The notes beneath the pieces are model-generated. The model had not been told where the DNA came from. It did no database searches and saw only the letters and a program-made list of their open reading frames with translations. The position numbers were made by a program, and so were the translations under genes. A DNA stretch of 32,000 nucleotides from an uncultured archaeon (GTDB lineage Archaea; Asgardarchaeota; Thorarchaeia; Thorarchaeales; Thorarchaeaceae): positions 60,001 through 92,000 of the forward strand of contig CAYHAA010000010.1 in NCBI GenBank assembly GCA_964354495.1, read 5' to 3'. Shown here one piece after another: positions 4,250 to 24,117 of the stretch. Numbering within the stretch: position 1 is the stretch's first letter; every line of letters starts with the position of its first letter.

Positions 4250-6034
4250 ATGAATGCGCTACTATTCCTTCTGATTTCTCTCATTGCACATGCAATCCCA
4301 ATGCCGTTTTCAAGGCAATACAGGAAACCAAGCAGTATGATCAAATGGTTGCCCATGCGTTTCATATGGGGAACAGTCGCTTGGGTCATCATCTGCCTGA
4401 TTTTTGGTTCAGTACTTCCTTGGGCAATCCTTGGACTGATCATGAGCCTAGCAGCTCTTATGATGATCACGAGCGGATTTCGCCCCGGTGGTCGCTTTGA
4501 GGATATGCTAGAGGGCATCCGAGTTCCCTATGCGTGCATTGGTCTAATTATTCTGATAACAGTACCAACGTTCGGAGGGATAATTGGATGGACCTCAGGA
4601 CTTGCAAATGCACAATATTTCGACTCCATGATCACAGAAACCGACGCTCCGCTCTTCACGAACCCCATCCCGGATAGAATGGTCAGGCTCGTCACAGAAG
4701 AATATGCGACGTATGTTGCAAGCCAGCACCTGTCACCCTTTGGATCCAACAACATAGTGGCAGCGGCACACATCACAATTAAGAACGGGACACTTGTGTG
4801 GGTGTGTACGATAGTATCAACGAATGTTCTTGCTGAGAACTATGTCAAGGGCTTCATTGTTATCGATGCAAACGACCCGCAAACAGTCGAGCCATATCCA
4901 ATCACTTCAACAACCATCCCAGTGGGAGAGGGTCTCTTCTGGGACAGAAACATCCAGTTCGGGAACTACTTGAATGACATTACTTCGTTGTATGAATATG
5001 CATATCCTACATGGGACCCCTCTGGTAATCTTGTCTATGTTCAGACACGAACGCCTCTTGGCTTCGATTTCGTAGAGGCTGCAACTGGTCCAATTATCTA
5101 TGCGGAGAATGGCTCCGTCTTTGCGTATGATACAATCGCAGATACACCAAGCTGGGTCACTCAGGCATACTCTGAGGAATGGCTTGAACGGCAGATAACA
5201 AGATGGGGTAGCTTCAGAAGAGGAAGCGGATTCGACCTCTTTGCTGGTGGACTCTTGTGGTTTATCGCACCATCGAACGATAGGCTCGAGATGACAGAGG
5301 ATACGAGATACATACTGAATCCAGACACGGAACGAATCGAGGCTTTCTTAGCTGTGAATCCAGTGAATGCACCCAATACTCTCGCAGGAGTGCTAAGAGC
5401 AACACAGAATGAGGTGTTTTATCACGACCTTAGCGGAGAAGGGTACGTCAGCGGTTCAACTGCAGTAGCTAATGTAATTGCCGCGATAGGGCCACCTGCG
5501 AGCGGCAACTATTATGGGGCAATGCCGCTTCTCTACCCTGTCGTCATCAATTCAACAGTCACAAAATGGACATGGTACACACCCATCTATTGGACTGATG
5601 CGTACTACTCCGAGGATCTTGGAGACTACGTTGCCTCCAACATGAGACTTCATGCTCTTGGTATGGTCGATGCATCGAACATAGATCGATACGTCTGGCT
5701 TCCGCTAGGTGGAGCATTATCAGGTGAGAATCTCGTACATCAGGTCAGAACCGATTACGTCGCTCTTCTTGGTGGCGAAATCGAAGAGGAGCCCTCAGAC
5801 ACCTTCATCATCACTGCAAATGTGACAGGTACGACCTCTTTTGTACAAAATAGTCAGCAGCATGTACTGTTGCGGACAGACAACGTCACCTATGAGTTCT
5901 TGGAGGGTGCACAGGCTTGGATGAATACGACGGACTGGTACACTCTTCTGTTCCTCGATGTGGGCGATAACTTCACAGCAACAGTCCTCCAAGTCGGAGA
6001 TGTCTACAGAATCATCGCAATCGTCAAGAACTAG
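4250..6034 (+). CDS. Uncharacterised membrane protein: N-terminal TM helices plus a large extracytoplasmic beta-rich domain
   Basis: 594-aa ORF; 3-4 hydrophobic segments in the first ~115 aa, then a soluble region with several NxS/T sequons (NGT, NGS, NST, NVT, NTT, NFT). Confidence 0.8.
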   Translation: MNALLFLLISLIAHAIPMPFSRQYRKPSSMIKWLPMRFIWGTVAWVIICLIFGSVLPWAILGLIMSLAALMMITSGFRPGGRFEDMLEGIRVPYACIGLIILITVPTFGGIIGWTSGLANAQYFDSMITETDAPLFTNPIPDRMVRLVTEEYATYVASQHLSPFGSNNIVAAAHITIKNGTLVWVCTIVSTNVLAENYVKGFIVIDANDPQTVEPYPITSTTIPVGEGLFWDRNIQFGNYLNDITSLYEYAYPTWDPSGNLVYVQTRTPLGFDFVEAATGPIIYAENGSVFAYDTIADTPSWVTQAYSEEWLERQITRWGSFRRGSGFDLFAGGLLWFIAPSNDRLEMTEDTRYILNPDTERIEAFLAVNPVNAPNTLAGVLRATQNEVFYHDLSGEGYVSGSTAVANVIAAIGPPASGNYYGAMPLLYPVVINSTVTKWTWYTPIYWTDAYYSEDLGDYVASNMRLHALGMVDASNIDRYVWLPLGGALSGENLVHQVRTDYVALLGGEIEEEPSDTFIITANVTGTTSFVQNSQQHVLLRTDNVTYEFLEGAQAWMNTTDWYTLLFLDVGDNFTATVLQVGDVYRIIAIVKN

Positions 6035-6081: not shown

Positions 6082-7251
6082 CTACTTTGGGAAGAACTCC
6101 TTGAACACTTCACGCTGAATGAGGAATCGAAGAATCTCGGCTGTTCCACCGCCGATCGTCATCAGACGCGCGTCTCTCATGAAGCGTTCAACAGGATAGT
6201 CAGTCGTGTAGCCCATACCACCTAGAATTTGGAGCGCATCATTAGTGACTTGAACAGCAGCCTCGGTTGTATAGAGCTTTGCAATTGAGGCAGCCTTAGT
6301 AATCTTCTGACCCCGGTCGTACATCCTTGCAGCTGTGAGCGTGAGAGCACGGCCTGCCTCCAGTTTCATTGCCATGTCTGCGATCTTGAAACTTACTCCC
6401 TCAAACTCATTGATAGGCCGGCCAAATTGGTGGCGCTCAGTTGAGTACTTGACAGCAATCTCATAGGGTGTTCTGCCATAGCCAATAGCCTCTCCGGCAA
6501 TCGCAGTCCTCTCAGAGTCCAGCTCGTCCATCAGAATATGGAATCCCTGACCAGGTTCCCCGAGTATCATATTACCTGGAACTCGAACATCCTCTAGTTT
6601 CAACCACGAAACCCGAGCAGACTTCATTCCGAGCAAGTCATGGTCTTTGACAACGGTGAATCCCTCACTCTTGGTGTCGACGATGAAAGCAGACATGCCA
6701 TCCTTAGCCTTCACAGCGGGGTCAGTGATAGCAAACGCACACATGTAGTCGGCTTGGCTTCCATTTGTGATGAAGCGCTTTTCGCCATTGAGGATCCAGC
6801 CATCACCGTCCCTCTTCGCTCGGGTCTTCATTCCTGCAGTATCAGACCCCACATCAGGTTCAGTGATACCAATGCATCCAATCTTATCTCCTGCAACAAC
6901 AGGCCTGAGATACTTCCTCTTCTGTTCAGGCGTTCCAAACCTTTCCACAGGCATGCCATAGAGAGTTGTAGAGGCCATGCGTGCCATGTCCAGGCCGGCA
7001 TTTGTGGCTGAGATCTCTTCAGCAACGATAATCTCATACGACAGGCCACGTTTTGTCCCACCTACTGATTTGTCATGGTGTACTCCCATGTAACCCGCCT
7101 TGCCAATTTTCCTCAGCAGTTCCCTTGGATAGGGGCCCTTGTCAATCTCATCCGCAATAGGAGCAATCTCCCTATCACAGAAAGCGCGGACTTCTCTCCG
7201 AAACTCGACCTCATCATCGGTCCAAAGTGCATTCGATAGGTGCTCAACCAT
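6082..7251 (-). CDS. Acyl-CoA dehydrogenase, IVD/LCAD-type catalytic Glu placement
   Basis: IGITEPDVGSD, WILNGEKRFITNG, ERHQFGRPI, ALQILGGMGY, RDARLMTIGGGTAEI. The ORF track starts at GTG 7284; ATG at 7251 is the likelier start. Confidence 0.93.
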   Translation of the reverse strand: MVEHLSNALWTDDEVEFRREVRAFCDREIAPIADEIDKGPYPRELLRKIGKAGYMGVHHDKSVGGTKRGLSYEIIVAEEISATNAGLDMARMASTTLYGMPVERFGTPEQKRKYLRPVVAGDKIGCIGITEPDVGSDTAGMKTRAKRDGDGWILNGEKRFITNGSQADYMCAFAITDPAVKAKDGMSAFIVDTKSEGFTVVKDHDLLGMKSARVSWLKLEDVRVPGNMILGEPGQGFHILMDELDSERTAIAGEAIGYGRTPYEIAVKYSTERHQFGRPINEFEGVSFKIADMAMKLEAGRALTLTAARMYDRGQKITKAASIAKLYTTEAAVQVTNDALQILGGMGYTTDYPVERFMRDARLMTIGGGTAEILRFLIQREVFKEFFPK

Positions 7252-7321
7252 TCCTGAAACCCGTGCCTTCTGCCGAGAACTCACTTAAATCACTAACTGG
7301 AAGCGCCGATCAGCATGTCAA

Positions 7322-7645
7322 TCATGAGAGTAGCCTGAAACGAAGTAGATTCGATCTGTCAGGAGCGACTTCGACAGGATCTCCAATCTCAGGCTTTGAA
7401 TCATCTTTGCTGCCAGCTAAGCATAATACGACTGCGCCTTGGTCCAGCTCCACCAGAGCCATCGTCAACGGGGGAGTGAATCCTTCGGGAGGCATCTCTA
7501 GAGTTGTGTGGCTGAGAATGGTGCCCTCGCCGTTGATCTTCTGTTTGACCATCTCTCCTGCGGCCTTTCCGCAATATGGACAGATGTCACGTGGCGGAAC
7601 GATTGTTCGAGAACAGCGCTTGCAATGAGAGGCTTGAATCTTCAT
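7322..7645 (-). CDS. DUF35 family Zn-ribbon/OB-fold protein (thiolase partner)
   Basis: CKRC...PPRDICPYC Zn ribbon followed by GTILSHT...ALVELDQG OB-fold pattern; 107 aa. Confidence 0.88.
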   Translation of the reverse strand: MKIQASHCKRCSRTIVPPRDICPYCGKAAGEMVKQKINGEGTILSHTTLEMPPEGFTPPLTMALVELDQGAVVLCLAGSKDDSKPEIGDPVEVAPDRSNLLRFRLLS

Positions 7646-7681: not shown

Positions 7682-7716
7682 AAAAGACTTCCGACAGGGC
7701 AGTCGGAAGCCCTGTC
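7682..7716 (-). promoter_or_regulatory. Two overlapping, mutually exclusive 8-bp hairpins followed by a T-run (terminator-like)
   Basis: Stem A: CTTCCGAC 7688-7695 / GTCGGAAG 7702-7709. Stem B: GACAGGGC 7693-7700 / GCCCTGTC 7709-7716. The minus-strand transcript continues UCUUUU. Confidence 0.4.
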
Positions 7717-7723
7717 ACATGAA

Positions 7724-10700
7724 TCATTCAGGTTCCATAAATGATTCTAGGAGGCTAATCAGTTCCTTCTTCGAGAGACGTTTCAGTTCGTCAGGGCTGA
7801 CAGTAGCTTTGAAATCTGAAGGAAGAAGCTCGACTAGTGTCTTCTTGTCCAGTTTTGATAGCTCCTTAATGCCGAGTGGAACATCTGAAACGCCAGCTTC
7901 CGCAGAGCGGGTTATTGGTTCAGGAAGCAGCTCCTTGGAAGGAGTATATGAGTCAAGAAGTGACTGAGCCTCCTTTCGAGACATCTTTTCGAGATCCTCT
8001 TTGGCTATAGCATCTCGAATCTCAGGAGGTAGTCTATCCAGGATTTCCTGCTTAGTCAGTGGTTTCTCCACTTCTATCGCAGGCATTGATTCAGGTAATG
8101 TCGTAGTCGCGGGAGCTGTTAATGCCTCAATGGTCTCCATCTCAACGTCTTCTGCCAACAGAGGTTCTTTCCTGACAGGTTCGGTCGGTTGGACCTCCTC
8201 AGCAACATGCAGCTCATCAGCAGACGTGCTAGTTGTCTCTATTTCCTCGATAGTCGGGGCCTCAGCCGCCCGGGGTACTTCAAGAGGTTCATGCACCTCT
8301 GAAACAGGGAGTTCGGCAGGCGGATAAGTGTCTGGCTCAGGTTCAGCTGGTTCAGTGCTAGTTTCTTCAATATGTGAATCAGCAGGAGCAGTGGCCGTTT
8401 CATCATATATTCCGAAGTCGGAGGGCTCAATATCGGTGATTCCTGCGCTGACTGCACCGTGTCTTCTGCGGGAAGCAATGAGTGCAACACCAATCAAACC
8501 GACACCCACACCGCCGCCAATCAGTAGGAGGGTCATCGTATCTGGGGCAAATCCCGGAACAGCAACCCATTCAATCTCTACGCTCAAATTGGCTGAATCG
8601 AGAGCGGAGATTCCATACAGGCTGTCTGATATGCTCTCAACAGAGAAAGTGTAGTTGCCTGCAGTGTTCCTAGTGACGCTAACGCTCCAATAGGCACCTG
8701 CTGAGTTGTATGTCATTGCATTGGTTGCACCAGTCAGAGATACCGAGCCACTAGTAAACGGACTCTCATCAAACTCGTATACGAGAGTGACTCGTATCTC
8801 TGTTGCAACTCCGACATCTTGGGAGAATGACGTCGCAGTGATTGAGGTCACCTGAACTCTGTCCCAGATGATCACCAGATCAGCAGCTGATTGTACGTAA
8901 CTGCTGATTTCACCAAGTGATGCAGAGATGATGCTGAATGAATAACTTCCTACGGTACTCTGAGTGACTGATGCCACATAGACACCACTGGATGGGATAC
9001 AAGTGATGTCGCCTGTCATCACGGCCACAACACCATTTGGTACGGTTACACCTGCGTTCTCAAGTCTTGCACTCCATTGGACCAAAGCCGTATCACCCAT
9101 ACCCAATCTGCTATGGTCAACAGATACTGAGTAGAATTCAATTCGGTCCCAATAGACAGTGACTTCATTCGAATCCATATTGAATTCAGTTATACCGTAG
9201 AGTGCGGCATTGCAGAGAGTAAGAAGGTCAAACGATACAGCTTGGTAGGTAGCCTCGGTGACATAGGTTTCCCATAGGCCGGACCCGACATGAGTCAGTG
9301 CATGACCTTCAATCGCAAATGTGCCGGAAGTGACAGACAACGCATCGTACTCATACTGTAGACCGACTATGACTCTCACATTGTCGCCGGGGTCATGGTA
9401 CAGCTCGTCAGCTGTGATTGAAGTGACTAGTACTCGGTCCCAAATGCAGTAGACAACATCATTGGAGAGGATGGCGGTGATTCCGAATGAATCATCCGCT
9501 GCAGAGAGGACAGTGTAGCCTTGTATCTGCGGCGTAGCGTACGAGAAGTAAGTGTTGTTCAGCGCGAGAGCTCCATCAAATGTAGCACCATCATATGCAT
9601 AGATGGCGCTCACGTAGATCCCCGTTGCGTTGGCTCCAACGTTGACTCGCATATCAGTCGGATTGGTCATGGTGATGATCAGAGCATCCCAGATTGCCTG
9701 CACATCAGTTGTAGAATCAGACCATTCTGTCAGCCCATGTATTGACTCTACAACTGAAACAACAGTGAATCCTGCAGATATCGGAACAGATGAGGTCTCC
9801 TGCCATCGCCAGTACGAGCCACCGGCGTTCCAGATCAAGGTCCTTGATCCATTGAGCTGGATCAGCAATCCACTCTGAATCTCAGTTCCGTTGTATTCGT
9901 ATCGTGCTCTCCACCATACTTCACAGTAGGAATTGATGTTGATTCGCAAGTCGACGACTCCAGCCAGATAGATCTCAATCCTGTCAGTGATGAAGGTGTC
10001 AGTGGGGCTGGTCGAGAAGTACAAGTCAGTACTCCCTGAGCCAGCACCCTCAGCCACAGTCTTGATGGTGTAGGTGTTCAACCTGATGGAGGCAGAGGAT
10101 CCAATGCTGGAGATACTGAAACTGCCAGCAGCCAGGTCACCATTCCAACTGCCTGCAACATCATGGATAATCCAGACATCAGTCTCATTTGCGAGAGGGC
10201 TAAGACTGGAGCCATAGTATGTGATGGACCCGGACACGACAAGGTCGGTGGTATTCACATCACCATGGTCGTCAGACAATGATGGTGTAACTGAATAATC
10301 AAGACGTGTTTCCACATCCCAGTTCGTCTCGTAGGAGTCTGAATCTGAATCAGTGCCATCGAAGACAGACTGCTCCACATCAGAATCAGCAGTGTGTTCA
10401 TGATCCCAACCTATTTTCAGATACCAGGTGATACTCAGCGTATTCCCAGCTCCGACTGCATCGGACATGCTGCCGATGACTACAACTGCGCCACCCACTT
10501 CGACAGAGAATGTATCGGTCGAATATGTGTATCGCACTCTCCAATATAGAGTAACTCGATCGTCAGAGTAGAGCGATAACTCGACATAGCTAATGTCTGC
10601 AAAGCCATCCGGGTCACTGACAGATGTAATGATGATGTAGTATCGATACCGAGCATATAGGCGGTCCGTATCATCTCCGTTAGTGAGTGTTGGAGCAGAA

Positions 10701-13700
10701 TCATTCATTGGAGGATTGTTGGGTTCAGAGGACCAGGTAACCAGCCAAGCGTTCGTAGAGAATGCTGTTATACTATAGTTCGATTCGAATGAGATACTAC
10801 GCGTTGTGTAGCTGTAGGAGATGTTGTACCCAACATCAACGAAGAGACTGACATTAGCACCAATGAATGAGTGCCACCATGTTGAGTTTCTCTGTACGAC
10901 TATCTGATATGATGTACAGGCGGCGTCATCATAATCAAAGATGACTGTAAGCGAGAAATTAGCTTGGACACCGTTCAAGGGAGTGGAATCATCAACTCCA
11001 ATCGTAATGACAAGCTGATCCCATATGCAATATGTCGCATCATTGGCTGAGATCGCTCTGATTCCATGAGTTCCACCACTTGCTGAGTCCACAGTGTACC
11101 ACTGAATCTGAGCTGTGCCGTAAGTGAACTGAGTGTTGTTAAGAATCAAAACACCGTCGAAAACAGAGCCATCATAGTCATGCACAGCACTAGTAACGAT
11201 ACCTGACGCATTAGTGTTGACATTGATACGTTGATCTGTGGAGTCACTGATGGTTATCGTAAGCGAGTCCCAGATACAATATGTTGCATCATTGGCTGAG
11301 ATCGCTGTGATACCATGAGTTCCACCACTCGCTGATAGGACTGTATACCACTGAATCTGTGCTGTTGAATACGTGAATTGTGTATTATTGAGAGTGAGAG
11401 ATCCATCAAAAGCCGACCCATCATAGTTGTAGACGGCGGCCACTATAATTCCAGAGGCATTTGTATTGATGTCAATGTGCTGGTCAAGTGGTTCTGTGAT
11501 GACTATCCTCAACGAGTCCCAGATACAGTAGGTCACATCGTTGTTGGAGATTGCAGTGATTCCAAAGGCACCACCACTCGCAGAACCCAGTGTGTACCAC
11601 TGGATCTGAGCTGTGCCATATGAGAACTGACTGTTGTTTAAGGTCAGAACACCATCGAAAACAGAGCCATCATAGTCGTAGATGGCGCTCACGATGATTC
11701 CTGTTGCATTCGCATTGATGTTTATTCGTTGGTCCGAAGGGTCTGTCAGTGATACAGTGAGTGAATCCCAGATGCAATAGGTCACATCATTCGCAGATAC
11801 TGCTGTAATCCCGTAGGTTCCTTCACTAACGCCCTGCACAGTGTACCACTGAATCTGAGCTGTGCTATAAGCAAACAGTGTGTTGTTCAGCGTAAGGATT
11901 CCATCGAATTCAGCGCCATCGTAGTCATAGACCGCTGTGATGACAATTCCAGATGCGTTTGTATTGATGTTTATTCGCTGGTCCAAGGGATCTGTAATCG
12001 AAATTGTCAGCGAGTCCCAGATGCAGTAGGTCACATCATTTGTCGAGATTGCTGTAATCCCATGAGTTCCACCTGAGACTGACTGTACTGTGTAAGCCTG
12101 CCTCTGTGAAATGCTGTAGGTAAATTGCGTGTTGTTGAGGGTTAGAGTGCCATCGAACGCAGCTCCATCATAATCGTAGGTTGCAGTCAAAATGATTCCC
12201 GTTGCATTCGCATTGACATTGATTCGCTGATCCAAGGGGGCGGTGAGGACAATAGTCAGTGAGTCCCAGATGCAGTAGGTCACATCATTTGTCGAGATTG
12301 CCGTAATCCCATGAGTCCCACCTGAAACTGATTGCACGGTGTAGCCCTGTTTCTGGGCTATGGCATATGCGAATTGAGTATTATTGAGGGTGAATGTGCC
12401 GTCGAATGCAGCACCATCATAGTCGTATATTACTGTTACCACGACGGCGGATGCATTGCTGCTTATATTGATTCGTTGATCAGTAGGGTCTGTAATGGCG
12501 ATAGTAAGTGAGTCCCAAATACAGTAGGTAACATCATTTGCTGAGATTGCTGTGATTCCATAAGTTCCCCCACTCACACCCTGAACAGTGTACCACTGAA
12601 TCTGAGCAGTAGCATAGACGAATTGCGTGTTGTTGAGTATGAGCATTCCGTCAAACGGTGCAGAGTCATAGTCATGGACTGCAGAAACAACTATTCCTGA
12701 AGCATTCGTATTGATGTTGATGCGCCGGTCCAGAGGGTCAGTAATCGTGATTGTAAGCGAGTCCCAGATGCAATAAGACACATCGTTACTTGAGATAGTA
12801 GTGATGCCATAGACCCCGCCGCTCGCACTCTGGACACTATACCACTGAATTTGAACACTGCTGTAGATGAATAGAGTGTTGTTCAGTGTCAATATACCAT
12901 CGAAAGTAGAGTCGTCATACTCATAGACAGCAGAAACGATTATTCCGGATGCGTTCGTATTGATATTGATACGTTGGTCGATGGGGTCAGTCATTATGAT
13001 TCTCAAAGAGTCCCAGATGCACCAAGTCATGTCGTTGGCCGATATTGCTGTGATTCCATAGGCCCCGCCACTCACGCTCTGAACAGTGTACCACTGGATT
13101 TGAGCAAGGGCATAGCTGAATTGAGTGTTATTGAGGCCGACTGTACCATCGAAGGCAGAACCATCATAGTCGTAGAATGCAGTCACGACTATCCCGGACG
13201 CATTCGTATTGACGTTGATACGCTGGTCAGAAGGATCAGTGACTACAACCGTGAGTGAGTCCCAAATACAATATGCTGCTTCATCAATGGAGACTGCTGT
13301 TATACCGAAGGCGCCACCACTCACTGAGCTCACCCGGTACCATTGAATCTGAGCCGTGGCGTAGCTGAATTGCGTGTTGTTCAGAGAGAGGACTCCATCA
13401 AATGCTGAGCCATCGTAATCATAGATGGCACTGATGACAATGCCAGAGGCGTTGGTGTTGATGTTAATTCGCTGATCTGACGGATCAGTGATTGTGATTG
13501 TGAGCGAGTCCCATATGCAATATGTGACGTCGTTGCTGGAAATCAGTGTAATTCCATAGGTATCACCTGAAGCCGACTGCACAGTGTAACCTTGCCTCTG
13601 AGCTACAGCGTACACGAATTGGGTGCTGTTAATGGTCAACGCACCATCGTACGTGGTGCCATCATAGTCGTATACCGCAGTAACTACAATACCTGACGCA

Positions 13701-16700
13701 TTGGTGTTGATGTTGATTCTTTGGTCAGCAGGATCTGTAATGATTATGGTCAGTGAGTCCCAGATGCAGTAGGTCGCGTCATTCACTGATATTGCAGTGA
13801 TTCCATATGCTCCGCCACTGACACCCTGAACAGTGTACCATTGAATCTGGGCTGCAGCATATGCGAATTGAGTGTTGTTTAGAGCTAGGACACCATCGAA
13901 GGCAGAACCATCATAATCATAAACTGCGGAAACTACGATTCCTGATGCGTTTGCATTGATATTGATTCGCTGATCGCCTGGATCGGTTATGGTTATTGAA
14001 ACAGCGTCCCAGATGCACCATGTCACATCGTTTGCTGAGATTGCAGTAATACCATATGTTCCACCACTTGCAGAGAGAGCAGTATACCACTGAATCTGAG
14101 CGGTGGAGTAGGCAAACTGCGTGTTATTCAAGCCGAGCGTGCCGTCAAACGGTGTGGAATCATAGTCGTAGGTAGCGCCGACTACTATCCCTGATGCATT
14201 CGCACCAATATTGATTCTCTGGTCCAACGGATTAGTGATTGTTACAGTCAGCGAGTCCCAGATACAGAAGGTCATGTCATTTGTCGATATGGCCGATATA
14301 CCGTATGATCCACTGCTTATCGAAGGAATTGTGTAGTACTGTATTTGCGCGGCCATGTAGGTGAATTGAGTATTGTTCAGAGTCAGGATACCGTCGAAGG
14401 CGGAGCCATCATAGTCGTAGATAGCAGAAACGATAATCCCGGATGCATTTGTATTGACATTGATGCGCTGGTCGAATGGGTCAGTGATTGTAATCGTGAC
14501 AGAGTCCCAGATACACCAAGTGACATCGTTTGCCGAGATGGCAGTGATGCCATAGGTTCCGCCACTGGCAGACATGACTGTATACCACTGAATCTGGGCC
14601 GTGGCGTAAGAGAACAGCGTGTTGTTCAGTGTCAGGGTACCGTCAAACGGCGAGGAGTCATAGTTGTAGACTGCAGTAACCACAACTCCTGATGCGTTCG
14701 CGTTGATGTTGATACGCTGATCTGATGGCTCGGTGACTGCTATTGTTAGCGAGTCCCAGATACAATATGTCATGTCATTGGTAGAGATTGCAGTGATGCC
14801 GAACGCTCCGCCACTCACTGAGCCGACTCGATACCATTGAATCTGGGCTGTTCCGTAGCTGAACTGCGTGTTGTTCAATGTGAGAATTCCGTCGAATAAC
14901 GAGCCATCATAGTCATAGACCACGCTCACAACAATGCCTGATGCATTGGCATTGATGTTGATTCGCTGATCCAACGGGTCGGAAACTGATATTGTAAGCG
15001 AGTCCCAGATGCAATACGTAACGTCATTGCTGGAGATCACGGTGATGCCGTATGTACCACCACTAGCAGATAGAACAGTGTACCACTGGATCTGAGCGGC
15101 AGGATAGGAGAACTGCGTGTTGTTGAGTGCGAGCGTTCCATCAAAAGGCGCGGAGTCATAGTTGTAGACTGCTGTGACTACTATTCCCGATGCATTCGTA
15201 TTGATGTTGATGCGTTGGTCGAATGGGTCAGTGATTGTAATTGTCAACGAGTCCCAGATGCAGTATGTTTCGTCGTTGACTCCAATGAGCGACACTCCAT
15301 GGACTCCTCCAGAGGCAGTCGATACTTCATATCCTCTTATTCCAACCGTGCCATAGTTGAAGACCGTATCATTAAGATTCAGAGTTCCATCGAAGCTCGT
15401 GTCGTCGTAGTCATAGATTGCTGATGCAACAATGCCTGTTGCGTTGGCACCTGTGTCAATCCTCTGATCGATCGGATCGGTGAGCGTTATGATTAATCGA
15501 TCGGCAATATAGGTGTCAGTTGCACTGCTCGTATAGAATAAATCAGTGCCTCCTGCACCAGCTCCCTCCTCAACCACCTTGACCGTGTATGTGTCTAGAC
15601 CTACTAGATTGTCAGCGTAGCAAGTGACATTAAAAGCCCCTGAGGTGGGAGTGAGATCGCTCCAAGGCCCAACGTTAGTCCCATATTCTGAGGCAGAAAC
15701 CCAAATATCGACAGCTGTTGAAGAGGGCGCAACATTCACAGAACCGTAGTAGATGACAGTTCCTGTCAGTGAGAATGATCCATCTACATTGCCTCTATCT
15801 GGAGTCCCAGAGCTGTCGCTGACATGTGGCAAAACAGAGTATTCCAGCCTTGTTTCAATGTCCCAGTCAACTTCATACCATGTCGTTGTTGATTCGTTCT
15901 GAGCGTCTTCGACATAGCATCTTGCATCTATGTCAGTAGAATCAGGGAAGTCCCAATCAATTGTGAAGAAGAAGGTGGCATCAATATCATTGCCGCTCTT
16001 GGTTGCCGATGAACTTCCTGTATTCAATGTGACAAAGTTGCCACCATCGAATTGCTCTGAGAACACGCTTGTGTCCTCATCATATCTGAATCTACAGAAC
16101 TCTGTTGCCCGGGTATCGTCCCAAAGCCCAATTTCCAGAAAGTCGATGTCTGCGAATCCGTTCTGGTCGGATACGTAAACACTGACCTGATACTCTGCGT
16201 ATTGAGCGTACATGTTATCAGTATCGGTAGGGTTGTTCAGATAGGGTATCTGATCAATCAGGGGAGTATAGCTTGGGGTCCACGTATGCAATAGGACAGC
16301 ATCAATCTCCCATGTGTCCTGTGTTGTATCTCCTGTTTCAGTTCCGCCAAGAAATCTGACTTCGAACGCCGAACTGGTCAGGTACGAAGAAACACTGACA
16401 TTGTTCCACTGGTCCGGAGTGAGGTCCGCGAGGGCATTGATCCAAGTCCCGCTCCAGACATCAATCTTGATGTCTTCAGTCGGCCAGCCACCCCCTGTGA
16501 CAGGGTAGATGCATAAGTATTCGTAGGTTTCATCGTAGTCTGCAGCAGTCCATCCAACCTCCAAGTCAAGTCCATAGCTCCATGATGAAGGAGTCCAACA
16601 ATGAAGTAAGATACCCTCTATCTGCCAAGAACCCTGATAGGCATCATCGGTCTGCATGCTGTCTACGAATCTGATTTCGAAGGATGACGTAGTGAGATAG

Positions 16701-17773
16701 CTAGTAACCGATACATTATTCCAGCCTGCCTGGACACCGGTGATGACAGTGACCCATGCTGCACCATCCCAGACATCGACATTGAGAGTTTCAGAATTCT
16801 GTATGCCGCCATAGATACATAGCGCTTCATTCGATTCTGAATATTGGGCACTGGTCCAGCCAACCTCGAGGTCCAGCTCGTGGTTCAGATTATTGATATT
16901 CGCATAGAGCCTGCGCCAAGTATATGTGCCGTTAGTTGCATCAGTCGGGTCCGTTGGCGATGCATAGCTATTCGTCGTATCGGACTTACTACTTGCGCCA
17001 GTAGTAGACGTATAGTACAGTCTCATCGAGTTTGAAGCTGGGATTATCAGTATCCAGTATGTATTCCCACTAACTACTATCGGACGTGAGCCAGCTGCAA
17101 AGGTCAATGTCTTATCGCCGGCTGTCGCAGATACGCCGACTGCAGAGCTAACTCCGTTTGGCAAGATGTACCCAGACGAGTTTGTGATGATCCCCTTCGT
17201 GTTTATTGTACCCGTTGAGGACCTTCCGTAAAACACGACGCTGGCAACTTCCCCCGTGCTACTTGCAGTGTAGACACCACCATACATATAGTTCGCGCTT
17301 ACTGAAACATAGCTGGCACCACTGGCGGAACTTCTGCCAAATGTGCTGGTTCCAGTATTTGTATCAGCCTCGGTTAGAGTGTCATAAGAGCCATCGAAGT
17401 CCTGCATTTCAGCAAAAGAAGAGTGTGCACCTATGTCCGTGGGCGCATGAAGGTTGGATGCTTGATCCACGAAGTCTTCATAATTAGTGCCAGCATAGCT
17501 TATGTTTCCCTCGGTCATCTGATCGTAATTAGCACCATAGTCTTGAAGATACGAAAAGACACTATGCGAACCCCTATCACTAGGAGGATGAAGATTTGAG
17601 CTCTGATCAACAATGTCCTCAGCATTATCGCCTATTCCTGATACAGTATAGGAATTTGGCTCAGGAATCCCTCTCAATCCTCTAGGGGGTGATTCAATAT
17701 CCACAATTGGACTAGCCAATATAATACCAAGGAATGTTAGAAATAGGGCAAGTGTGAGGACACGTCTTCCCAT
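7724..17773 (-). CDS. Giant (3349 aa) repeat-rich cell-surface type I membrane protein, putative adhesin/receptor
   Basis: Uninterrupted 10,050-bp ORF. N-terminal basic plus hydrophobic signal (MGRRVLTLALFLTFLGIILAS), S/T/D/N-rich repeated beta modules, a single TM (TLLLIGGGVGVGLIGVALIA, ~8474-8536) followed by SRRRH, and an acidic Pro-rich tail. Confidence 0.93.
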   Translation of the reverse strand: MGRRVLTLALFLTFLGIILASPIVDIESPPRGLRGIPEPNSYTVSGIGDNAEDIVDQSSNLHPPSDRGSHSVFSYLQDYGANYDQMTEGNISYAGTNYEDFVDQASNLHAPTDIGAHSSFAEMQDFDGSYDTLTEADTNTGTSTFGRSSASGASYVSVSANYMYGGVYTASSTGEVASVVFYGRSSTGTINTKGIITNSSGYILPNGVSSAVGVSATAGDKTLTFAAGSRPIVVSGNTYWILIIPASNSMRLYYTSTTGASSKSDTTNSYASPTDPTDATNGTYTWRRLYANINNLNHELDLEVGWTSAQYSESNEALCIYGGIQNSETLNVDVWDGAAWVTVITGVQAGWNNVSVTSYLTTSSFEIRFVDSMQTDDAYQGSWQIEGILLHCWTPSSWSYGLDLEVGWTAADYDETYEYLCIYPVTGGGWPTEDIKIDVWSGTWINALADLTPDQWNNVSVSSYLTSSAFEVRFLGGTETGDTTQDTWEIDAVLLHTWTPSYTPLIDQIPYLNNPTDTDNMYAQYAEYQVSVYVSDQNGFADIDFLEIGLWDDTRATEFCRFRYDEDTSVFSEQFDGGNFVTLNTGSSSATKSGNDIDATFFFTIDWDFPDSTDIDARCYVEDAQNESTTTWYEVDWDIETRLEYSVLPHVSDSSGTPDRGNVDGSFSLTGTVIYYGSVNVAPSSTAVDIWVSASEYGTNVGPWSDLTPTSGAFNVTCYADNLVGLDTYTVKVVEEGAGAGGTDLFYTSSATDTYIADRLIITLTDPIDQRIDTGANATGIVASAIYDYDDTSFDGTLNLNDTVFNYGTVGIRGYEVSTASGGVHGVSLIGVNDETYCIWDSLTITITDPFDQRININTNASGIVVTAVYNYDSAPFDGTLALNNTQFSYPAAQIQWYTVLSASGGTYGITVISSNDVTYCIWDSLTISVSDPLDQRININANASGIVVSVVYDYDGSLFDGILTLNNTQFSYGTAQIQWYRVGSVSGGAFGITAISTNDMTYCIWDSLTIAVTEPSDQRININANASGVVVTAVYNYDSSPFDGTLTLNNTLFSYATAQIQWYTVMSASGGTYGITAISANDVTWCIWDSVTITITDPFDQRINVNTNASGIIVSAIYDYDGSAFDGILTLNNTQFTYMAAQIQYYTIPSISSGSYGISAISTNDMTFCIWDSLTVTITNPLDQRINIGANASGIVVGATYDYDSTPFDGTLGLNNTQFAYSTAQIQWYTALSASGGTYGITAISANDVTWCIWDAVSITITDPGDQRININANASGIVVSAVYDYDGSAFDGVLALNNTQFAYAAAQIQWYTVQGVSGGAYGITAISVNDATYCIWDSLTIIITDPADQRININTNASGIVVTAVYDYDGTTYDGALTINSTQFVYAVAQRQGYTVQSASGDTYGITLISSNDVTYCIWDSLTITITDPSDQRININTNASGIVISAIYDYDGSAFDGVLSLNNTQFSYATAQIQWYRVSSVSGGAFGITAVSIDEAAYCIWDSLTVVVTDPSDQRINVNTNASGIVVTAFYDYDGSAFDGTVGLNNTQFSYALAQIQWYTVQSVSGGAYGITAISANDMTWCIWDSLRIIMTDPIDQRININTNASGIIVSAVYEYDDSTFDGILTLNNTLFIYSSVQIQWYSVQSASGGVYGITTISSNDVSYCIWDSLTITITDPLDRRININTNASGIVVSAVHDYDSAPFDGMLILNNTQFVYATAQIQWYTVQGVSGGTYGITAISANDVTYCIWDSLTIAITDPTDQRINISSNASAVVVTVIYDYDGAAFDGTFTLNNTQFAYAIAQKQGYTVQSVSGGTHGITAISTNDVTYCIWDSLTIVLTAPLDQRINVNANATGIILTATYDYDGAAFDGTLTLNNTQFTYSISQRQAYTVQSVSGGTHGITAISTNDVTYCIWDSLTISITDPLDQRININTNASGIVITAVYDYDGAEFDGILTLNNTLFAYSTAQIQWYTVQGVSEGTYGITAVSANDVTYCIWDSLTVSLTDPSDQRININANATGIIVSAIYDYDGSVFDGVLTLNNSQFSYGTAQIQWYTLGSASGGAFGITAISNNDVTYCIWDSLRIVITEPLDQHIDINTNASGIIVAAVYNYDGSAFDGSLTLNNTQFTYSTAQIQWYTVLSASGGTHGITAISANDATYCIWDSLTITISDSTDQRINVNTNASGIVTSAVHDYDGSVFDGVLILNNTQFTYGTAQIQWYTVDSASGGTHGIRAISANDATYCIWDQLVITIGVDDSTPLNGVQANFSLTVIFDYDDAACTSYQIVVQRNSTWWHSFIGANVSLFVDVGYNISYSYTTRSISFESNYSITAFSTNAWLVTWSSEPNNPPMNDSAPTLTNGDDTDRLYARYRYYIIITSVSDPDGFADISYVELSLYSDDRVTLYWRVRYTYSTDTFSVEVGGAVVVIGSMSDAVGAGNTLSITWYLKIGWDHEHTADSDVEQSVFDGTDSDSDSYETNWDVETRLDYSVTPSLSDDHGDVNTTDLVVSGSITYYGSSLSPLANETDVWIIHDVAGSWNGDLAAGSFSISSIGSSASIRLNTYTIKTVAEGAGSGSTDLYFSTSPTDTFITDRIEIYLAGVVDLRININSYCEVWWRARYEYNGTEIQSGLLIQLNGSRTLIWNAGGSYWRWQETSSVPISAGFTVVSVVESIHGLTEWSDSTTDVQAIWDALIITMTNPTDMRVNVGANATGIYVSAIYAYDGATFDGALALNNTYFSYATPQIQGYTVLSAADDSFGITAILSNDVVYCIWDRVLVTSITADELYHDPGDNVRVIVGLQYEYDALSVTSGTFAIEGHALTHVGSGLWETYVTEATYQAVSFDLLTLCNAALYGITEFNMDSNEVTVYWDRIEFYSVSVDHSRLGMGDTALVQWSARLENAGVTVPNGVVAVMTGDITCIPSSGVYVASVTQSTVGSYSFSIISASLGEISSYVQSAADLVIIWDRVQVTSITATSFSQDVGVATEIRVTLVYEFDESPFTSGSVSLTGATNAMTYNSAGAYWSVSVTRNTAGNYTFSVESISDSLYGISALDSANLSVEIEWVAVPGFAPDTMTLLLIGGGVGVGLIGVALIASRRRHGAVSAGITDIEPSDFGIYDETATAPADSHIEETSTEPAEPEPDTYPPAELPVSEVHEPLEVPRAAEAPTIEEIETTSTSADELHVAEEVQPTEPVRKEPLLAEDVEMETIEALTAPATTTLPESMPAIEVEKPLTKQEILDRLPPEIRDAIAKEDLEKMSRKEAQSLLDSYTPSKELLPEPITRSAEAGVSDVPLGIKELSKLDKKTLVELLPSDFKATVSPDELKRLSKKELISLLESFMEPE
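7739..8062 (-). repeat. Two copies of a ~38-aa helical motif at the cytoplasmic C-terminus of the giant protein
   Basis: LTKQEILDRLPPEIRDAIAKEDLEKMSRKEAQSLLDSY (7946-8059) versus LDKKTLVELLPSDFKATVSPDELKRLSKKELISLLESF (7739-7852). Confidence 0.75.
9446..9694 (-). repeat. Solitary 19th copy of the 83-aa repeat
   Basis: IWDALIITMTNPTDMRVNVGANATG...LSNDVVYC; its IWD and the next IWD are exactly 249 bp apart. Confidence 0.85.
11027..15508 (-). repeat. 18 tandem copies of a 249-bp / 83-aa unit
   Basis: The IWD codons (plus strand GAGTCCCAGAT-like) recur at 15249, 15000, 14751 ... 11265, 11016, always 249 bp apart, and 4482 bp = 18 x 249. Consensus is approximately IWDSLTITITDPxDQRININTNASGIVVSAxYDYDGSAFDGxLTLNNTQFxYATAQIQWYTVxSASGGTYGITAISxNDVTYC. 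Confidence 0.97.
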
Positions 17774-18008: not shown

Positions 18009-19181
18009 CTAAGGTCGCTGAAGAATAGTCACGACGATATTGTTACCAAACCCACCAATGTTGTGAGTAAGACCAATACCCGGGTTATCTACTTGGAGCC
18101 CTTTGGGAGCCTCTCCTCTCAATTGCGTGACAATGTCGCGTATCTGAGCTACTCCAGTGGCGCCAGTGGGATGACCTCTTGCCTTGATACCACCTGTAGT
18201 GTTGACAGGCATCTCTCCCCAGACCTCCGTTAGACCCTCCTTTACCGCATGAATTGCGCTCCCACGTTCGACTAGACCAATATCCTCCATATTCACAAGT
18301 TCGAGGATGGAGAAAGCATCATGAAGCTCGCACACATCAATCTCTTGAGGACTGATACTAGCCATCTTGAAGGCTTTCTCTGCAGCTACTACTGAAGCAT
18401 CAAAAGAGGTCAGAGCAGATCGATGTTGAACAGCAAGATAGTCGGTTCCATGACCAATACCTAGGACCCGTATTGCTCTATCTGCAAGACCATGTTCTTC
18501 CATCGTGCTTTCGGACGCAACAACAATAGCTGCTGCACCATCGCTCGTAGGGCAACAATCGTACAGGGTAAGAGGGTCTGCAACAACTCTTGCTGTGTTC
18601 ACCTGTTCAATGGTGATCTCCTTTTGAAAGTGAGCCAGGGGGTTCTTCGCTCCATTTCGGTGGGCCTTCACAGGAATGAGAGAGAGTTCGTCCCGCGTCA
18701 GACCATAGTCATGCATGTACCTACGGGCAATCATAGCCGCGAGTGCAATAGGCGTGGCACCGTATCGAGTTTCGTTTTCGTAGGACATCATTTTGGCCAG
18801 AATCCCCGATGCTACCCCTCTGTCGACCTCGGACATCTTCTCCACGCCAACCACAAGAACAAGATTCGCCATGCCTGCGGCGACCAATGCGAAGGCGGAC
18901 TCGAAGGCACTCGACCCTGAGGATGGACCAGTCTCAACTCGAATAGCGCCTGCTGGAACCAATCCAAGGCGGTCCGCCAGTACAGATGAGAGATGTCCCT
19001 GGCCTACGAACTCATCGGGATTCTGGGCACCCACGACAAGACGATCGAATCGTGCCTCGACCGTTGAGGAGTCTTCCATCGCCTCAAAGGCAGCACTCTG
19101 TGCGAGATCTAGTATAGAATCATCGAGCACACCGAACCTTGTCATTCCCGCTCCAACGATATAGACAGGATCCACGATCAT
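18009..19181 (-). CDS. Thiolase-fold protein (archaeal/SCP2-like type) lacking the canonical nucleophilic Cys
   Basis: VYIVGAGMTRFG, AHRNGAKNPLAHFQ, DCCPTSDGAAA, ELHDAF, GGIKARGHPTGATG, THNIGG. The usual VExACASG motif reads VETGPSSG. Confidence 0.9.
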   Translation of the reverse strand: MIVDPVYIVGAGMTRFGVLDDSILDLAQSAAFEAMEDSSTVEARFDRLVVGAQNPDEFVGQGHLSSVLADRLGLVPAGAIRVETGPSSGSSAFESAFALVAAGMANLVLVVGVEKMSEVDRGVASGILAKMMSYENETRYGATPIALAAMIARRYMHDYGLTRDELSLIPVKAHRNGAKNPLAHFQKEITIEQVNTARVVADPLTLYDCCPTSDGAAAIVVASESTMEEHGLADRAIRVLGIGHGTDYLAVQHRSALTSFDASVVAAEKAFKMASISPQEIDVCELHDAFSILELVNMEDIGLVERGSAIHAVKEGLTEVWGEMPVNTTGGIKARGHPTGATGVAQIRDIVTQLRGEAPKGLQVDNPGIGLTHNIGGFGNNIVVTILQRP

Positions 19182-21800: not shown

Positions 21801-22388
21801 TTAGGCTCTTCGGCGGTATATTATATAAAGTACTGGTAGAATCACAGCCACAATGGTCACCGAGATTATGATTGAGATTTGAAGCGGAATGTCGGCTGTG
21901 GTGTTTGTTGAGCCCTGCCTGCAGAATGATATTCGATGCAAGCTGGATGTATTCCAGTTGTTGAGGCTATCATTTGCATAGAACATGATATCCCAGATAA
22001 CTAAAGAGTTTGCTCCAATAATCGTGAAATTCAGAGGCCAAGCTACAAAGTCGTCTGGATCACTTGTAAAAGCATCTCGACTCATAGAAACATTGTTCCA
22101 GTTGCTACTCGAATTGTTATTGTAACTTCCAATAACATTACTCACTCCATCGGGGTCTGTTACTCCAACTCTGAGTTCAAGGGTCAAGGTCACAGGTTCG
22201 GTGCTAGGAACAAGATCCATGAACACCCATGGAGTGAGTTTGAACGAAGGACCTGAAGACTGACATACCTGAAACGAGGATGACAGAGATGACTGATTGC
22301 TCACAGCTGCCCCTCCTGCATTTGGCATCAGTGATGTCAGTGCAACTAGAATCAAAACAGCGTATCTAAAAGTCATTATCATCTTCAT
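21801..22388 (-). CDS. Small type I membrane protein with one Ig-like extracellular domain
   Basis: Signal peptide, VTDPDGVSNV...FYANDSLNNWN beta-sandwich-like segment with many sequons, and C-terminal TM IIISVTIVAVILPVLYII followed by YRRRA. Confidence 0.8.
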   Translation of the reverse strand: MKMIMTFRYAVLILVALTSLMPNAGGAAVSNQSSLSSSFQVCQSSGPSFKLTPWVFMDLVPSTEPVTLTLELRVGVTDPDGVSNVIGSYNNNSSSNWNNVSMSRDAFTSDPDDFVAWPLNFTIIGANSLVIWDIMFYANDSLNNWNTSSLHRISFCRQGSTNTTADIPLQISIIISVTIVAVILPVLYIIYRRRA

Positions 22389-22476: not shown

Positions 22477-24117
22477 TCACCAATAGCTCCGAGCATATGC
22501 CAAATACTGGTCCCAACTGCTACAATGATAATAATGATATGAGAGGTCACGCTCCGATCCATATATATCAGGTACGCCACCTGAACTTTCGGCCATTCCT
22601 TCAACATGACCATACTCATGCATTAAAATCCATTGTCTATAATTCTGAAGATAATACGAGGCTTCATCGCCTATTGCAAATCCAAAGCCCCATATTCCAA
22701 ATCCCCAAATGTTGCTAGGATCTATGTAATGAGCAAATAAACCATATACCCATCTGGTCTGTCCGATATGATTGAAATACATATCGCGATAGTTGGATTC
22801 GTACTCGTCCCCGTTAATGTCATATTCAAAAGGAACGCTCGAACTCTGAACAAATGTCACTCTTCTGTAGTCATGGACTATCCAATATGCTTGGAGATAA
22901 TCAAAGATAGAAACAGGTTGCTGATGATTATAGCTGGTTCCTCCATGAACTCCAACCATCCAATCAACTTCGACGTTCCTATAATAGTAATTGATCCACC
23001 AGTGCGTCAAAGCCTTTGGATTCGTCCCGTAATTGCCATAGTACAGAACAAACTTGATTTCATGCATACCAGGTGTTGAATAACTTGGCAATTGAATATG
23101 ATAGGTACCAGGAGCAGTAAGTGTGCTGTGAAGCTGACCGTCTACATAGACGTATAAGTATCTGTAAAACGGATCATGAACATTGACGCATTGTATGTCT
23201 AGGTATGTGCTAGGACCCATCGGTGTGCGGTATCTGAGTTCCGAATAGAGCGCGTTTTGAAAGTTCTCTTCTGTCGTATCATAAGGTTGACCCGAAGAAT
23301 CAAAGAGGTGGTAATATCTGAGCTGCCATCCTTTATCGGATATACCTCCATTGTAGATTTCAAGTGTTATTGTCAACCATCCAGTGTAGATTAATGATAT
23401 ATCACCTTCCCAGTAGGGTTGTGTGCTATAGATTACTGTATTTAGTATCTGAACATATCCCACATACACCCGAAAGTATCTAGAGTAGGTATCTAGATCT
23501 CTCTCCACTCTTATGTGTGCCTTCATCCCGGACTGAATATATGCTTGATATGAGATCCTTGCATATGTGGACTTTGGAAACCAGTGCCCCTCCATTGCAG
23601 GAGTCACAGGTACTGCGCGCGTATTTCTATCATGAGGACCGAATTCCGAGCCCCAAGTATGTCCAGTGAAGTAACCACTGACAAGTGGAGTTGACTCTTT
23701 TTCTGATTCTATTATTATTTCTTGAGATACATTCATTGCTTCAGGTATACAATCAGCGGAAACAAATGGAGGCATTTGATTAATTCTCTCAATCTCTGGA
23801 GAGATTGAAGCATTCATCATTTGAACTTCCTCAAGTGTTGGGATTTTTGTTCCGAAATCCGTTTCTAGATAATTCAGGGTCGTAGGATCTCTCTCAGAGG
23901 TAGTTACCATATTGTTCCAAGGGATATCTGCATTCTGCGTAGTCATGGGACTTTCGGAAAACGCAGCTATTGCCAAAGCTCCCGGAATCTGATTGATAGT
24001 GCATACTAGCACCACAATCACAACAATCCTGATTGCAGAAAGAAAACGATCCTTTTTGAAACTCCATTTACCAGTCTTGAAATTCATACCACATACTTCC
24101 TCAATCAATCGTTCCAT
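22477..24117 (-). CDS. Membrane-anchored/secreted putative zinc metallopeptidase (HExxH)
   Basis: N-terminal hydrophobic helix, two Tyr-rich beta domains, and C-terminal ILMHEYGHVEGM. The start may be ATG 24087 after GAGGAAG. Confidence 0.7.
   Translation of the reverse strand: MERLIEEVCGMNFKTGKWSFKKDRFLSAIRIVVIVVLVCTINQIPGALAIAAFSESPMTTQNADIPWNNMVTTSERDPTTLNYLETDFGTKIPTLEEVQMMNASISPEIERINQMPPFVSADCIPEAMNVSQEIIIESEKESTPLVSGYFTGHTWGSEFGPHDRNTRAVPVTPAMEGHWFPKSTYARISYQAYIQSGMKAHIRVERDLDTYSRYFRVYVGYVQILNTVIYSTQPYWEGDISLIYTGWLTITLEIYNGGISDKGWQLRYYHLFDSSGQPYDTTEENFQNALYSELRYRTPMGPSTYLDIQCVNVHDPFYRYLYVYVDGQLHSTLTAPGTYHIQLPSYSTPGMHEIKFVLYYGNYGTNPKALTHWWINYYYRNVEVDWMVGVHGGTSYNHQQPVSIFDYLQAYWIVHDYRRVTFVQSSSVPFEYDINGDEYESNYRDMYFNHIGQTRWVYGLFAHYIDPSNIWGFGIWGFGFAIGDEASYYLQNYRQWILMHEYGHVEGMAESSGGVPDIYGSERDLSYHYYHCSSWDQYLAYARSYW

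Follow-up and report, generated by a model that had tools for sequence, protein, structure and literature searches.

A predicted four-helix domain of about 42 residues ends the tail of a giant Thorarchaeales surface protein and may act as a protein-docking module

Asgard archaea form the archaeal phylum closest to eukaryotes, and to our knowledge almost nothing is known of how their large surface proteins are linked to the cell interior. This question is raised by a stretch of 32,000 nucleotides from an uncultured archaeon of the family Thorarchaeaceae (GenBank assembly GCA_964354495.1, contig CAYHAA010000010.1, positions 60,001 to 92,000), here called the window, which encodes a surface protein of 3349 residues. 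An initial annotation of the letters alone had described the span 7739-8473 (residues 3101-3345 of the protein, whose last 249 residues form the tail) as an acidic linker ending in two copies of a motif that resembles helix-extension-helix (HeH) folds and might bind nucleic acids or proteins. What, then, is this motif, and what could it do at the inner end of a surface protein? Judged from sequence comparison, each copy is a genuine domain of about 42 residues, or unit, and the domain represents a previously undescribed family restricted to Thorarchaeales. The parts of the protein to which the argument refers are as follows, A1 being the family profile described below.

7724 to 17773, minus strand: gene of the giant protein, a 3349-residue type-I surface protein, taken from the open reading frame (ORF) list, with the stop codon at 7724-7726
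8471 to 8539, minus strand: single transmembrane helix, residues 3079-3101, an unbroken 23-residue hydrophobic run found by script
8456 to 8470, minus strand: RRRHG positive-inside stop-transfer cluster, residues 3102-3106, read from the sequence
8072 to 8455, minus strand: acidic, proline-rich low-complexity linker (the leash) from RRRHG to unit 1, defined by composition
7940 to 8071, minus strand: unit 1 of the predicted four-helix domain of about 42 residues, envelope of the A1 match (E = 2.8e-16)
7946 to 8059, minus strand: copy 1 as first annotated, residues 3239-3276, an exact pattern match
7865 to 7939, minus strand: inter-unit linker, predicted to be disordered (predicted local distance difference test, pLDDT, below 50 at residues 44-63 of the last 113 residues)
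7730 to 7864, minus strand: unit 2, the terminal unit, envelope of the A1 match (E = 8.9e-15), ending 1 residue before the C-terminus
7739 to 7852, minus strand: copy 2 as first annotated, residues 3308-3345, an exact pattern match

Sequence inspection showed a signal-like hydrophobic segment at the N-terminus of the giant protein, followed by an ectodomain of many DUF7738-like repeats (Pfam DUF7738, E = 1.2e-31, four stretches). By the established positive-inside rule, the RRRHG cluster behind the transmembrane helix indicates that the tail is cytoplasmic. The same order of transmembrane helix and RRR is present in orthologues of the giant protein, and RRRR, RRRK or KRR clusters follow the helix in most of 33 related tails. 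The leash, which had been given as about 135 residues, runs for 131 residues from RRRHG to copy 1 and is indeed acidic and of low complexity, with 77 of the 131 being E (27), A (17), P (17) or T (16). The pattern by which the two copies of about 38 residues had been described was turned into a regular expression; it has exactly two matches in the protein and none in 20,000 shuffles of the 249-residue tail. The copies are identical at 12 of 38 residues and align with a BLOSUM62 local score of 72, compared with 22.5 ± 4.5 when copy 2 is shuffled (z = 11; 0 of 5000 reach 72). A shorter element, [LM]-x-K-x-[ET]-[LIA], had been said to occur twice within each copy; this is so for copy 2 but not for copy 1, as the strict sites lie at residues 3239, 3308 and 3333 and the fourth has R in place of K. 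No direct repeat was found at the DNA level in 7700-8500, and the duplication of the unit is therefore old.

Comparison with four orthologous tails gave identities of 58-65% of aligned positions for the unit region, 49-63% for the end of the ectodomain and 30-44% for the leash, whose length in the orthologues ranges from 132 to 210 residues. Conserved units next to a divergent linker of variable length are what one expects when a folded domain hangs on a disordered leash. The inter-unit linker opens with S-Y-x-P-x-x-E-x-LPE right after unit 1, an element kept in five of five two-unit tails. Among the tails of related giants (loci L004-L011), those with a single unit carry a conserved [DE]-Y-x-x-[IV]-P-E-E-F-I-E-P ... 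V-D-L stretch just N-terminal to the unit. From sequence, the single-unit form may have descended from the two-unit form by loss of unit 1.

The family was delineated stepwise: a hidden Markov model (HMM) was built from 18 units of fetched loci, the loci were re-scanned with it, and 42 distinct units were aligned to give A1. Units were kept at a domain E ≤ 1e-3, and the terminal element of the HEAT-type proteins described below, two units of locus L017 and other weaker ones were dropped. The signature of the domain is L-[ST]-K-x-E-L ... L-P-x-[DE]-[IV]-[KR] ... [DE]-L-[KR]-R-L-[ST]-K-x-E-L, with Pro15 invariant in all 42 units and Leu38 nearly so. Both units of the window match this profile of 42 positions, with its L-P and [DE]-L-[KR]-R-L-[ST] signature, at the E-values listed above, which are not independent because the two units are rows of A1.

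When the 113-residue end of the protein (P0002) was used in a word-indexed search, 2 of 678 candidates proved to be matching proteins, and NCBI gives one of these two the name 'Candidatus Thorarchaeota archaeon'. With the same query, a six-frame search across 61 related genomes gave matches in 33, including that of the window (32 of 36 in the same family, f1, and 0 of 24 in other families), and the matches fell into two classes, namely the C-termini of ORFs of about 1300-4200 residues and ORFs of about 390-540 residues. A profile search for homologues had been proposed in the initial annotation, and this search, run with A1 over 301 genomes of the phylum, found the domain in 74, again including the genome of the window (G000). 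Of the 76 genomes in the family of the window, 72 had a match, as did the single genome of its sister family f2 (73 of 77 for the order); none of the 223 genomes of 28 other families had one, and there, as elsewhere, a missing match in an incomplete genome is not proof of absence. Among 1.84 billion cluster representatives, HMMER with A1 retrieved 63 proteins at E ≤ 1e-3, of which 31 at E ≤ 1e-10. Five of the weaker representatives (P0025, P0039, P0052, P0055 and P0059) were set aside as unrelated short-helix repeat proteins. A tree of the units is poorly resolved for the order of events (44 columns; 18 of 39 inner branches open), and the clades that stand out are those of the first unit of the HEAT proteins (100/100) and of 14 terminal tail units (91/99). 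A literature search, judged on titles and the openings of abstracts, found no description of this tail or domain.

The second check proposed in the initial annotation, structure prediction, points to an independently folding domain. For a single unit with the 42-row alignment, AlphaFold2 gave a pLDDT of 88.8 and a predicted template modelling score (pTM) of 0.61, with four short helices at positions 7-12, 16-21, 24-29 and 32-43. For the 113-residue end with 24 aligned rows, the mean pLDDT was 74.8 and the pTM 0.35, again with four short helices per unit (block pLDDT 83-88; in unit 1, 85-88, with helices at residues 5-11, 14-19, 22-27 and 30-39 of this end) and with pLDDT below 50 for the inter-unit linker at residues 44-63. 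The conserved hydrophobic positions 5, 10, 11, 14, 18, 22, 27, 30, 35, 38, 39 and 42, together with Pro15, fit a small helical core, and S/T-x-x-E caps at the helix starts agree with the model.

The initial annotation had likened the copies to SAP, LEM and Rho_N domains, that is, to the HeH class, which binds DNA, RNA or BAF through a basic face. This idea stands in part, in that the predicted fold seems nearest to that class, whereas every sequence-level test of membership failed. Foldseek with both models found nothing in the PDB at E ≤ 0.001. VIA-align was run against 48,161 representative chains, with the best 50 rows per list retained and two values per entry. The N-terminal subdomain of Rho (1a62_A) scored 5.1 and 4.7, with a root-mean-square deviation of 2.0 and 1.9 Å over 44 and 40 residues, and the TAF1 segment (6mzm_A) scored 5.0 and 4.9, which is below the reliable range. 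These were accompanied by the C-terminus of T4 endonuclease VII (1e7d_A; 4.8 and 3.9), SLX4 (7bu5_B; 4.7 and 3.6), the C-terminal domain of CDNF (9i5y_B; 3.5 and 4.2), SAP domains (1zrj, 2do1, 2do5 and 2kw9; 3.1-4.4), emerin LEM (2odc_I and 7ndy_G; 3.2-3.6) and the MANF SAP domain (6h9u_B; 3.2-3.5). Entries with Rho-N, SAP or LEM in their titles made up 7-8 of the best 50 rows per list and were the most frequent recognisable class; PIAS1, Ku70, FAN1, SLX4 and CDNF, also among the rows, we take to be further SAP-type entries. The models suggest that the HeH class of Rho-N, SAP and LEM is nearest to the predicted fold of the domain. A search of the ESM Atlas with unit 2 gave best scores of 0.79 (XylA2_C) and 0.75 (SAP), values that shuffled sequences often reach.

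At the sequence level, a Pfam scan of a 278-residue tail returned none of SAP (PF02037), LEM (PF03020), Rho_N (PF07498) or HeH (PF12949) at E ≤ 1. Six-frame translations of G000 and of 18 congeneric genomes contained no match to the Rho_N model at E ≤ 0.01, with 9 of 14 control genomes positive. Profile-profile comparison by hhalign, which covered Rho alignments, gave A1 a probability of 5.4% over 18 columns against residues 1-48 of E. coli Rho and of 4.4% over 19 columns against 73 distinct gammaproteobacterial Rho N-termini, a set of low diversity (Neff 2.7). When 42 single units were scanned against 24,736 Pfam models, the matches were to S_100 (16 units), KIP1 (9), CAAP1 (7), Rho_N (4), FANC_SAP (2), Sigma70_r4_2 (2) and SAP (1), and the best E-values for Rho_N (0.0042), SAP (0.011) and FANC_SAP (0.04) are not convincing given 42 scans. 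Since all of these tests fail, the domain is not filed as SAP, LEM or Rho_N. Other candidates were dismissed as well. The S_100 matches (best E = 6.1e-4) are confined to the helical stretch of the L-S-K-K-E-L type, lack a calcium loop and are compositional; the match to HeliScrew4, a designed protein (9zem_A, E = 6e-5), is made up of six tiny pieces of a helical repeat of 8 residues and reflects repeat composition; and DUF3993, at E = 0.015 with the tail and 0.22 with the unit, stays below the Pfam cut-off.

We note several differences between the domain and its nearest neighbours in fold. Compared with the N-terminal helical subdomain of Rho (PF07498; 1a62), the connector here is modelled as two extra short helices around the invariant proline; moreover, Rho_N lies N-terminal on an RNA helicase, whereas the unit lies C-terminal on the tails of membrane proteins. 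SAP and LEM domains (PF02037, PF03020), including those of the eukaryotic HeH/LEM proteins of the inner nuclear membrane, are basic, whereas the units here are neutral or acidic and have no significant sequence match to them. In addition, the units stand at the C-terminus of archaeal plasma-membrane proteins rather than in the inner nuclear membrane, and we know of no BAF or lamina counterpart for this archaeal tail. The human TAF1 helical segment (994-1035; 6mzm_A and 7ena_DA), in turn, lies inside a large eukaryotic transcription factor.

The domain is found on very different membrane proteins, always at the same place. All membrane proteins examined have their last unit behind a transmembrane segment, with 0-24 residues between the end of that unit and the C-terminus. 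The carriers include single-pass giants of about 1300-4200 residues with one or two units, proteins of about 2300-2500 residues with a polytopic C-terminal part, and small proteins of 199-428 residues. In 33 distinct tails, the stretch from the last detected transmembrane helix to the first unit measures 115-317 residues, with on average 30% D/E and 5% K/R; six of the 33 belong to the polytopic group, and their 'linker' contains further transmembrane helices. Some carriers depart from the common form. At G014:C25:18126-22120 (locus L027), the match to a 2365-residue ORF holds one TGA and one TAA, and a separate 79-residue ORF with a complete unit lies about 3.7 kb downstream, so that L027 may represent two genes, or one giant gene that was broken or split. 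The tail of a 4195-residue giant at G002:C78:55000-57500 (locus L017) has divergent units of a P-I-T-K-E-D-W-I-E-R-I-P type; P0046 was noted alongside it. The related representative P0064 also has a K-[FY]-G-x-E-K-A ... I-P-E-[DE]-Q-I-K-E-M-D terminal element, otherwise found in the HEAT-repeat protein, a combination that points to domain shuffling between soluble and membrane carriers.

The only other unit-bearing ORF in the genome of the window encodes this soluble HEAT-repeat protein.

G000 C1:334074-335255 (locus L013:8075-9226), minus strand: HEAT-repeat carrier of 384 residues, identified by unit and HEAT matches

Its N-terminal part belongs to the HEAT family (PF13646, HEAT_2, 45 bits against a cut-off of 27.7; PF02985, HEAT, 39.1 bits against 23.5), and in the PDB it matches alphaRep designed HEAT-like repeat proteins at E = 1.2e-30. 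Two clear units follow, and then the conserved terminal unit-like element. HEAT-type carriers of 384-540 residues with 2-4 units were found in every genus looked at, with orthologues in loci L014, L025, L127, L128, L132 and L134. In the single genome of the sister family, the units occur only in a 415-residue HEAT-type ORF, and for this reason the soluble protein is probably the older carrier, the membrane tails having gained the unit within the family. In a comparison of 8 genomes, vWA, amidohydrolase, Rce1-like and NfeD/SPFH genes adjoin the HEAT gene in 5-7 of them (vWA and amidohydrolase in 6-7), although all eight belong to one family and the shared gene order may simply have been inherited. 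The HEAT gene is oriented convergently or divergently with respect to these neighbours and is therefore not co-transcribed with them.

Taken together, the tail is a cytoplasmic module of three parts, i.e., a membrane anchor with its positive-inside cluster, a polyanionic, proline-rich and disordered leash, and two autonomously folding domains of about 42 residues. The domain would act as a 'plug' at the extreme C-terminus of the cytoplasmic tails of many different Thorarchaeales membrane proteins, and the leash would extend the reach of the plug into the cytoplasm and couple the surface protein to a soluble scaffold. The partner could be the HEAT-repeat protein, contacted at its HEAT domain, at its polybasic stretch or at the units that it carries; it could also be a third protein to which both carriers bind, or the units themselves. 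We infer that the domain is a lineage-specific, HeH-like protein-protein docking module linking the tails to a scaffold in the cytosol, a reading that we hold tentatively, as plausible though short of probable. It is favoured because the plug always stands at the end of a leash, because it is common to the tails and a multivalent soluble protein, and because the HeH class has protein-bound members. Such members are also found among the structural neighbours, several of which were, by their titles, solved with proteins: MANF SAP with BiP (6h9u_B), the CDNF C-terminal domain with BiP (9i5y_B), SLX4 with MUS81 (7bu5_B) and LEM with BAF (7ndy_G). The mean net charge of the units, an indirect indicator, is -1.2 for 27 tail units (range -9 to +3) and -3.8 for 15 units of HEAT proteins, and neutral to acidic units on a polyanionic leash make direct binding of nucleic acid unlikely. 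Several observations weigh against docking, however. Unit positions 7, 19, 28, 29 and 32 are conserved as basic (64-93% K/R). A polybasic stretch (10-15 K/R in 20 residues, K/R-V-K/R-K/R-V) lies between the units in 26 of 26 HEAT-carrier orthologues, and 7 of the 26 have helix-hairpin-helix (HhH)-like inserts at three different positions, suggesting repeated independent insertion; the insert of P0005 matches RadA N-terminal and L32e-fused HhH models at E-values of 4e-8 to 8e-9. The polybasic stretch and the inserts hint at the involvement of nucleic acid somewhere in the system. The A1 profile was grown from the hits of its own earlier HMM, and the family counts depend on that definition of the unit. 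A complex prediction for the full 384-residue HEAT-repeat protein (A3) with one tail unit (A1), run without controls, scored 0.00 and 0.00, which is neither support nor counter-evidence.

Among the other explanations, it is conceivable, though unlikely, that the units bind one another, tail to tail or tail to HEAT protein, and thereby cluster or cross-link surface proteins with no third partner. One or two copies on the tails and 2-4 on the soluble protein are the pattern expected for multivalent homotypic networks, and the acidic tail leashes are opposite in charge to the polybasic linkers of the HEAT protein; however, the two-unit model, with its pTM of 0.35 and disordered linker, gives no sign of the units packing together. 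Rather unlikely, too, is that the units bind DNA or RNA in the manner of SAP, LEM-like or Rho-N-type HeH domains, so that the giant protein would anchor nucleoid DNA or RNA to the membrane, in parallel to the eukaryotic HeH/LEM proteins of the inner nuclear membrane. The prevalence of HeH classes among the recognisable structural neighbours, the weak single-unit matches to Rho_N (4 of 42), FANC_SAP (2 of 42) and SAP (1 of 42), and the soluble carrier with its polybasic stretch and RadA-N-like HhH inserts would agree with such a tether. Yet neutral-to-acidic units on a leash with about 30% D/E should repel nucleic acid, no sequence-level membership in any HeH family was found, and the more frequent S_100 matches (16 of 42) show that matches below threshold are unspecific.

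We consider it improbable that the terminal unit is a C-terminal recognition tag, recognised by a machinery for sorting, quality control or turnover (e.g., the Cdc48N-vWA and hydrolase gene set adjoining the HEAT-repeat gene) instead of being a structural link. The strictly C-terminal position on very different membrane proteins, as well as the recurrent vWA and amidohydrolase neighbours of the HEAT-carrier gene, would fit a tag, but that gene is not co-transcribed with these neighbours, their synteny in one family may be simple inheritance, and a duplicated folded domain of 42 residues is large for a degron or sorting signal. The idea that the copies are a degenerate helix-turn-helix like region 4 of sigma-70, or a helical repeat of low complexity that arose by chance and serves no specific role, we regard as hardly credible. 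Weak matches to region 4 of extracytoplasmic-function (ECF) sigma factors do exist (sigma-E 2h27_A, E = 0.013 over 27 columns; NCBIfam SigE, RpoE and SigM, E = 0.066-0.094; Sigma70_r4_2 in 2 of 42 units, best E = 0.054). However, the match spans only the first two helices of region 4, no sigma factor is among the best 50 VIA-align rows, and the units do not belong to the sigma-70 region 4 families (PF08281, PF04545), having no recognition helix. As only 4 residues follow the last helix of unit 2, leaving no third, recognition helix, a helix-turn-helix is ruled out; the shuffle tests, together with conservation in 73 of the order's 77 genomes, exclude chance.

If the docking reading holds, it may be compared with the cadherin tail and the ARM-repeat protein beta-catenin, as a functional analogy only. 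Here, too, a repeat-rich, adhesin-like protein has a single transmembrane helix and a cytoplasmic tail, and a soluble alpha-solenoid (HEAT) protein shares a module with that tail; in contrast to cadherin, whose disordered tail lies in the groove of the solenoid, a folded mini-domain is present on both proteins, and there is no homology. A wider proposal, to which we give little weight, is an order-specific receptor-adaptor system in which the multivalent HEAT-repeat protein would couple the plugs of Ig-like-repeat giants and other membrane proteins to the nucleoid or a cytoplasmic scaffold. It is the polybasic stretch and, in some genera, the HhH inserts of the soluble carrier that keep a membrane-to-nucleoid tether alive in this proposal. 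If true, prokaryotic cells would here possess a membrane-to-chromatin (or membrane-to-scaffold) tether of the same fold class as the eukaryotic LEM/HeH inner-nuclear-membrane proteins.

The surroundings of the giant gene were also inspected. The gene, of about 10 kb, is flanked by a thiolase gene (18009-19181) and by a gene of a ChsH2-like OB-fold/zinc-ribbon protein (7322-7645), beyond which lies an acyl-CoA dehydrogenase gene (6082-7284), all three on the minus strand. It looks as if the giant gene had been inserted into a fatty-acid metabolism cluster, and these neighbours point to no functional link. The plus-strand ORFs under the tail (7719-7967, 8001-8327 and 8328-8654) were treated as shadows of the coding strand. 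A whole-protein Pfam match to MerB (alkylmercury lyase, E = 1.1e-08) in the repeat region 7727-17773, where no single stretch passes, is most likely artefactual, the score having added up across about 20 similar ectodomain repeats. Five ORFs of the window, of 180-594 residues, have no Pfam match at E ≤ 0.001, and the one of 594 residues starts with several hydrophobic segments:

4250 to 6034, plus strand: ORF without Pfam match
21801 to 22388, minus strand: ORF without Pfam match
22477 to 24117, minus strand: ORF without Pfam match
24679 to 25221, minus strand: ORF without Pfam match
25434 to 26105, plus strand: ORF without Pfam match

Whichever function holds, the domain family is missing from curated libraries. 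The domain offers a concrete handle on how large Asgard surface proteins are linked to the cell interior, being small, confidently predicted to fold alone, conserved in one order, and present on dozens of tails as well as on one soluble protein. If the tails dock to the HEAT-repeat protein or to a common partner, they would be part of a lineage-specific outside-in coupling system; if the domain binds DNA, it would constitute a membrane-nucleoid tether drawn from a fold class that is used at the eukaryotic nuclear envelope.

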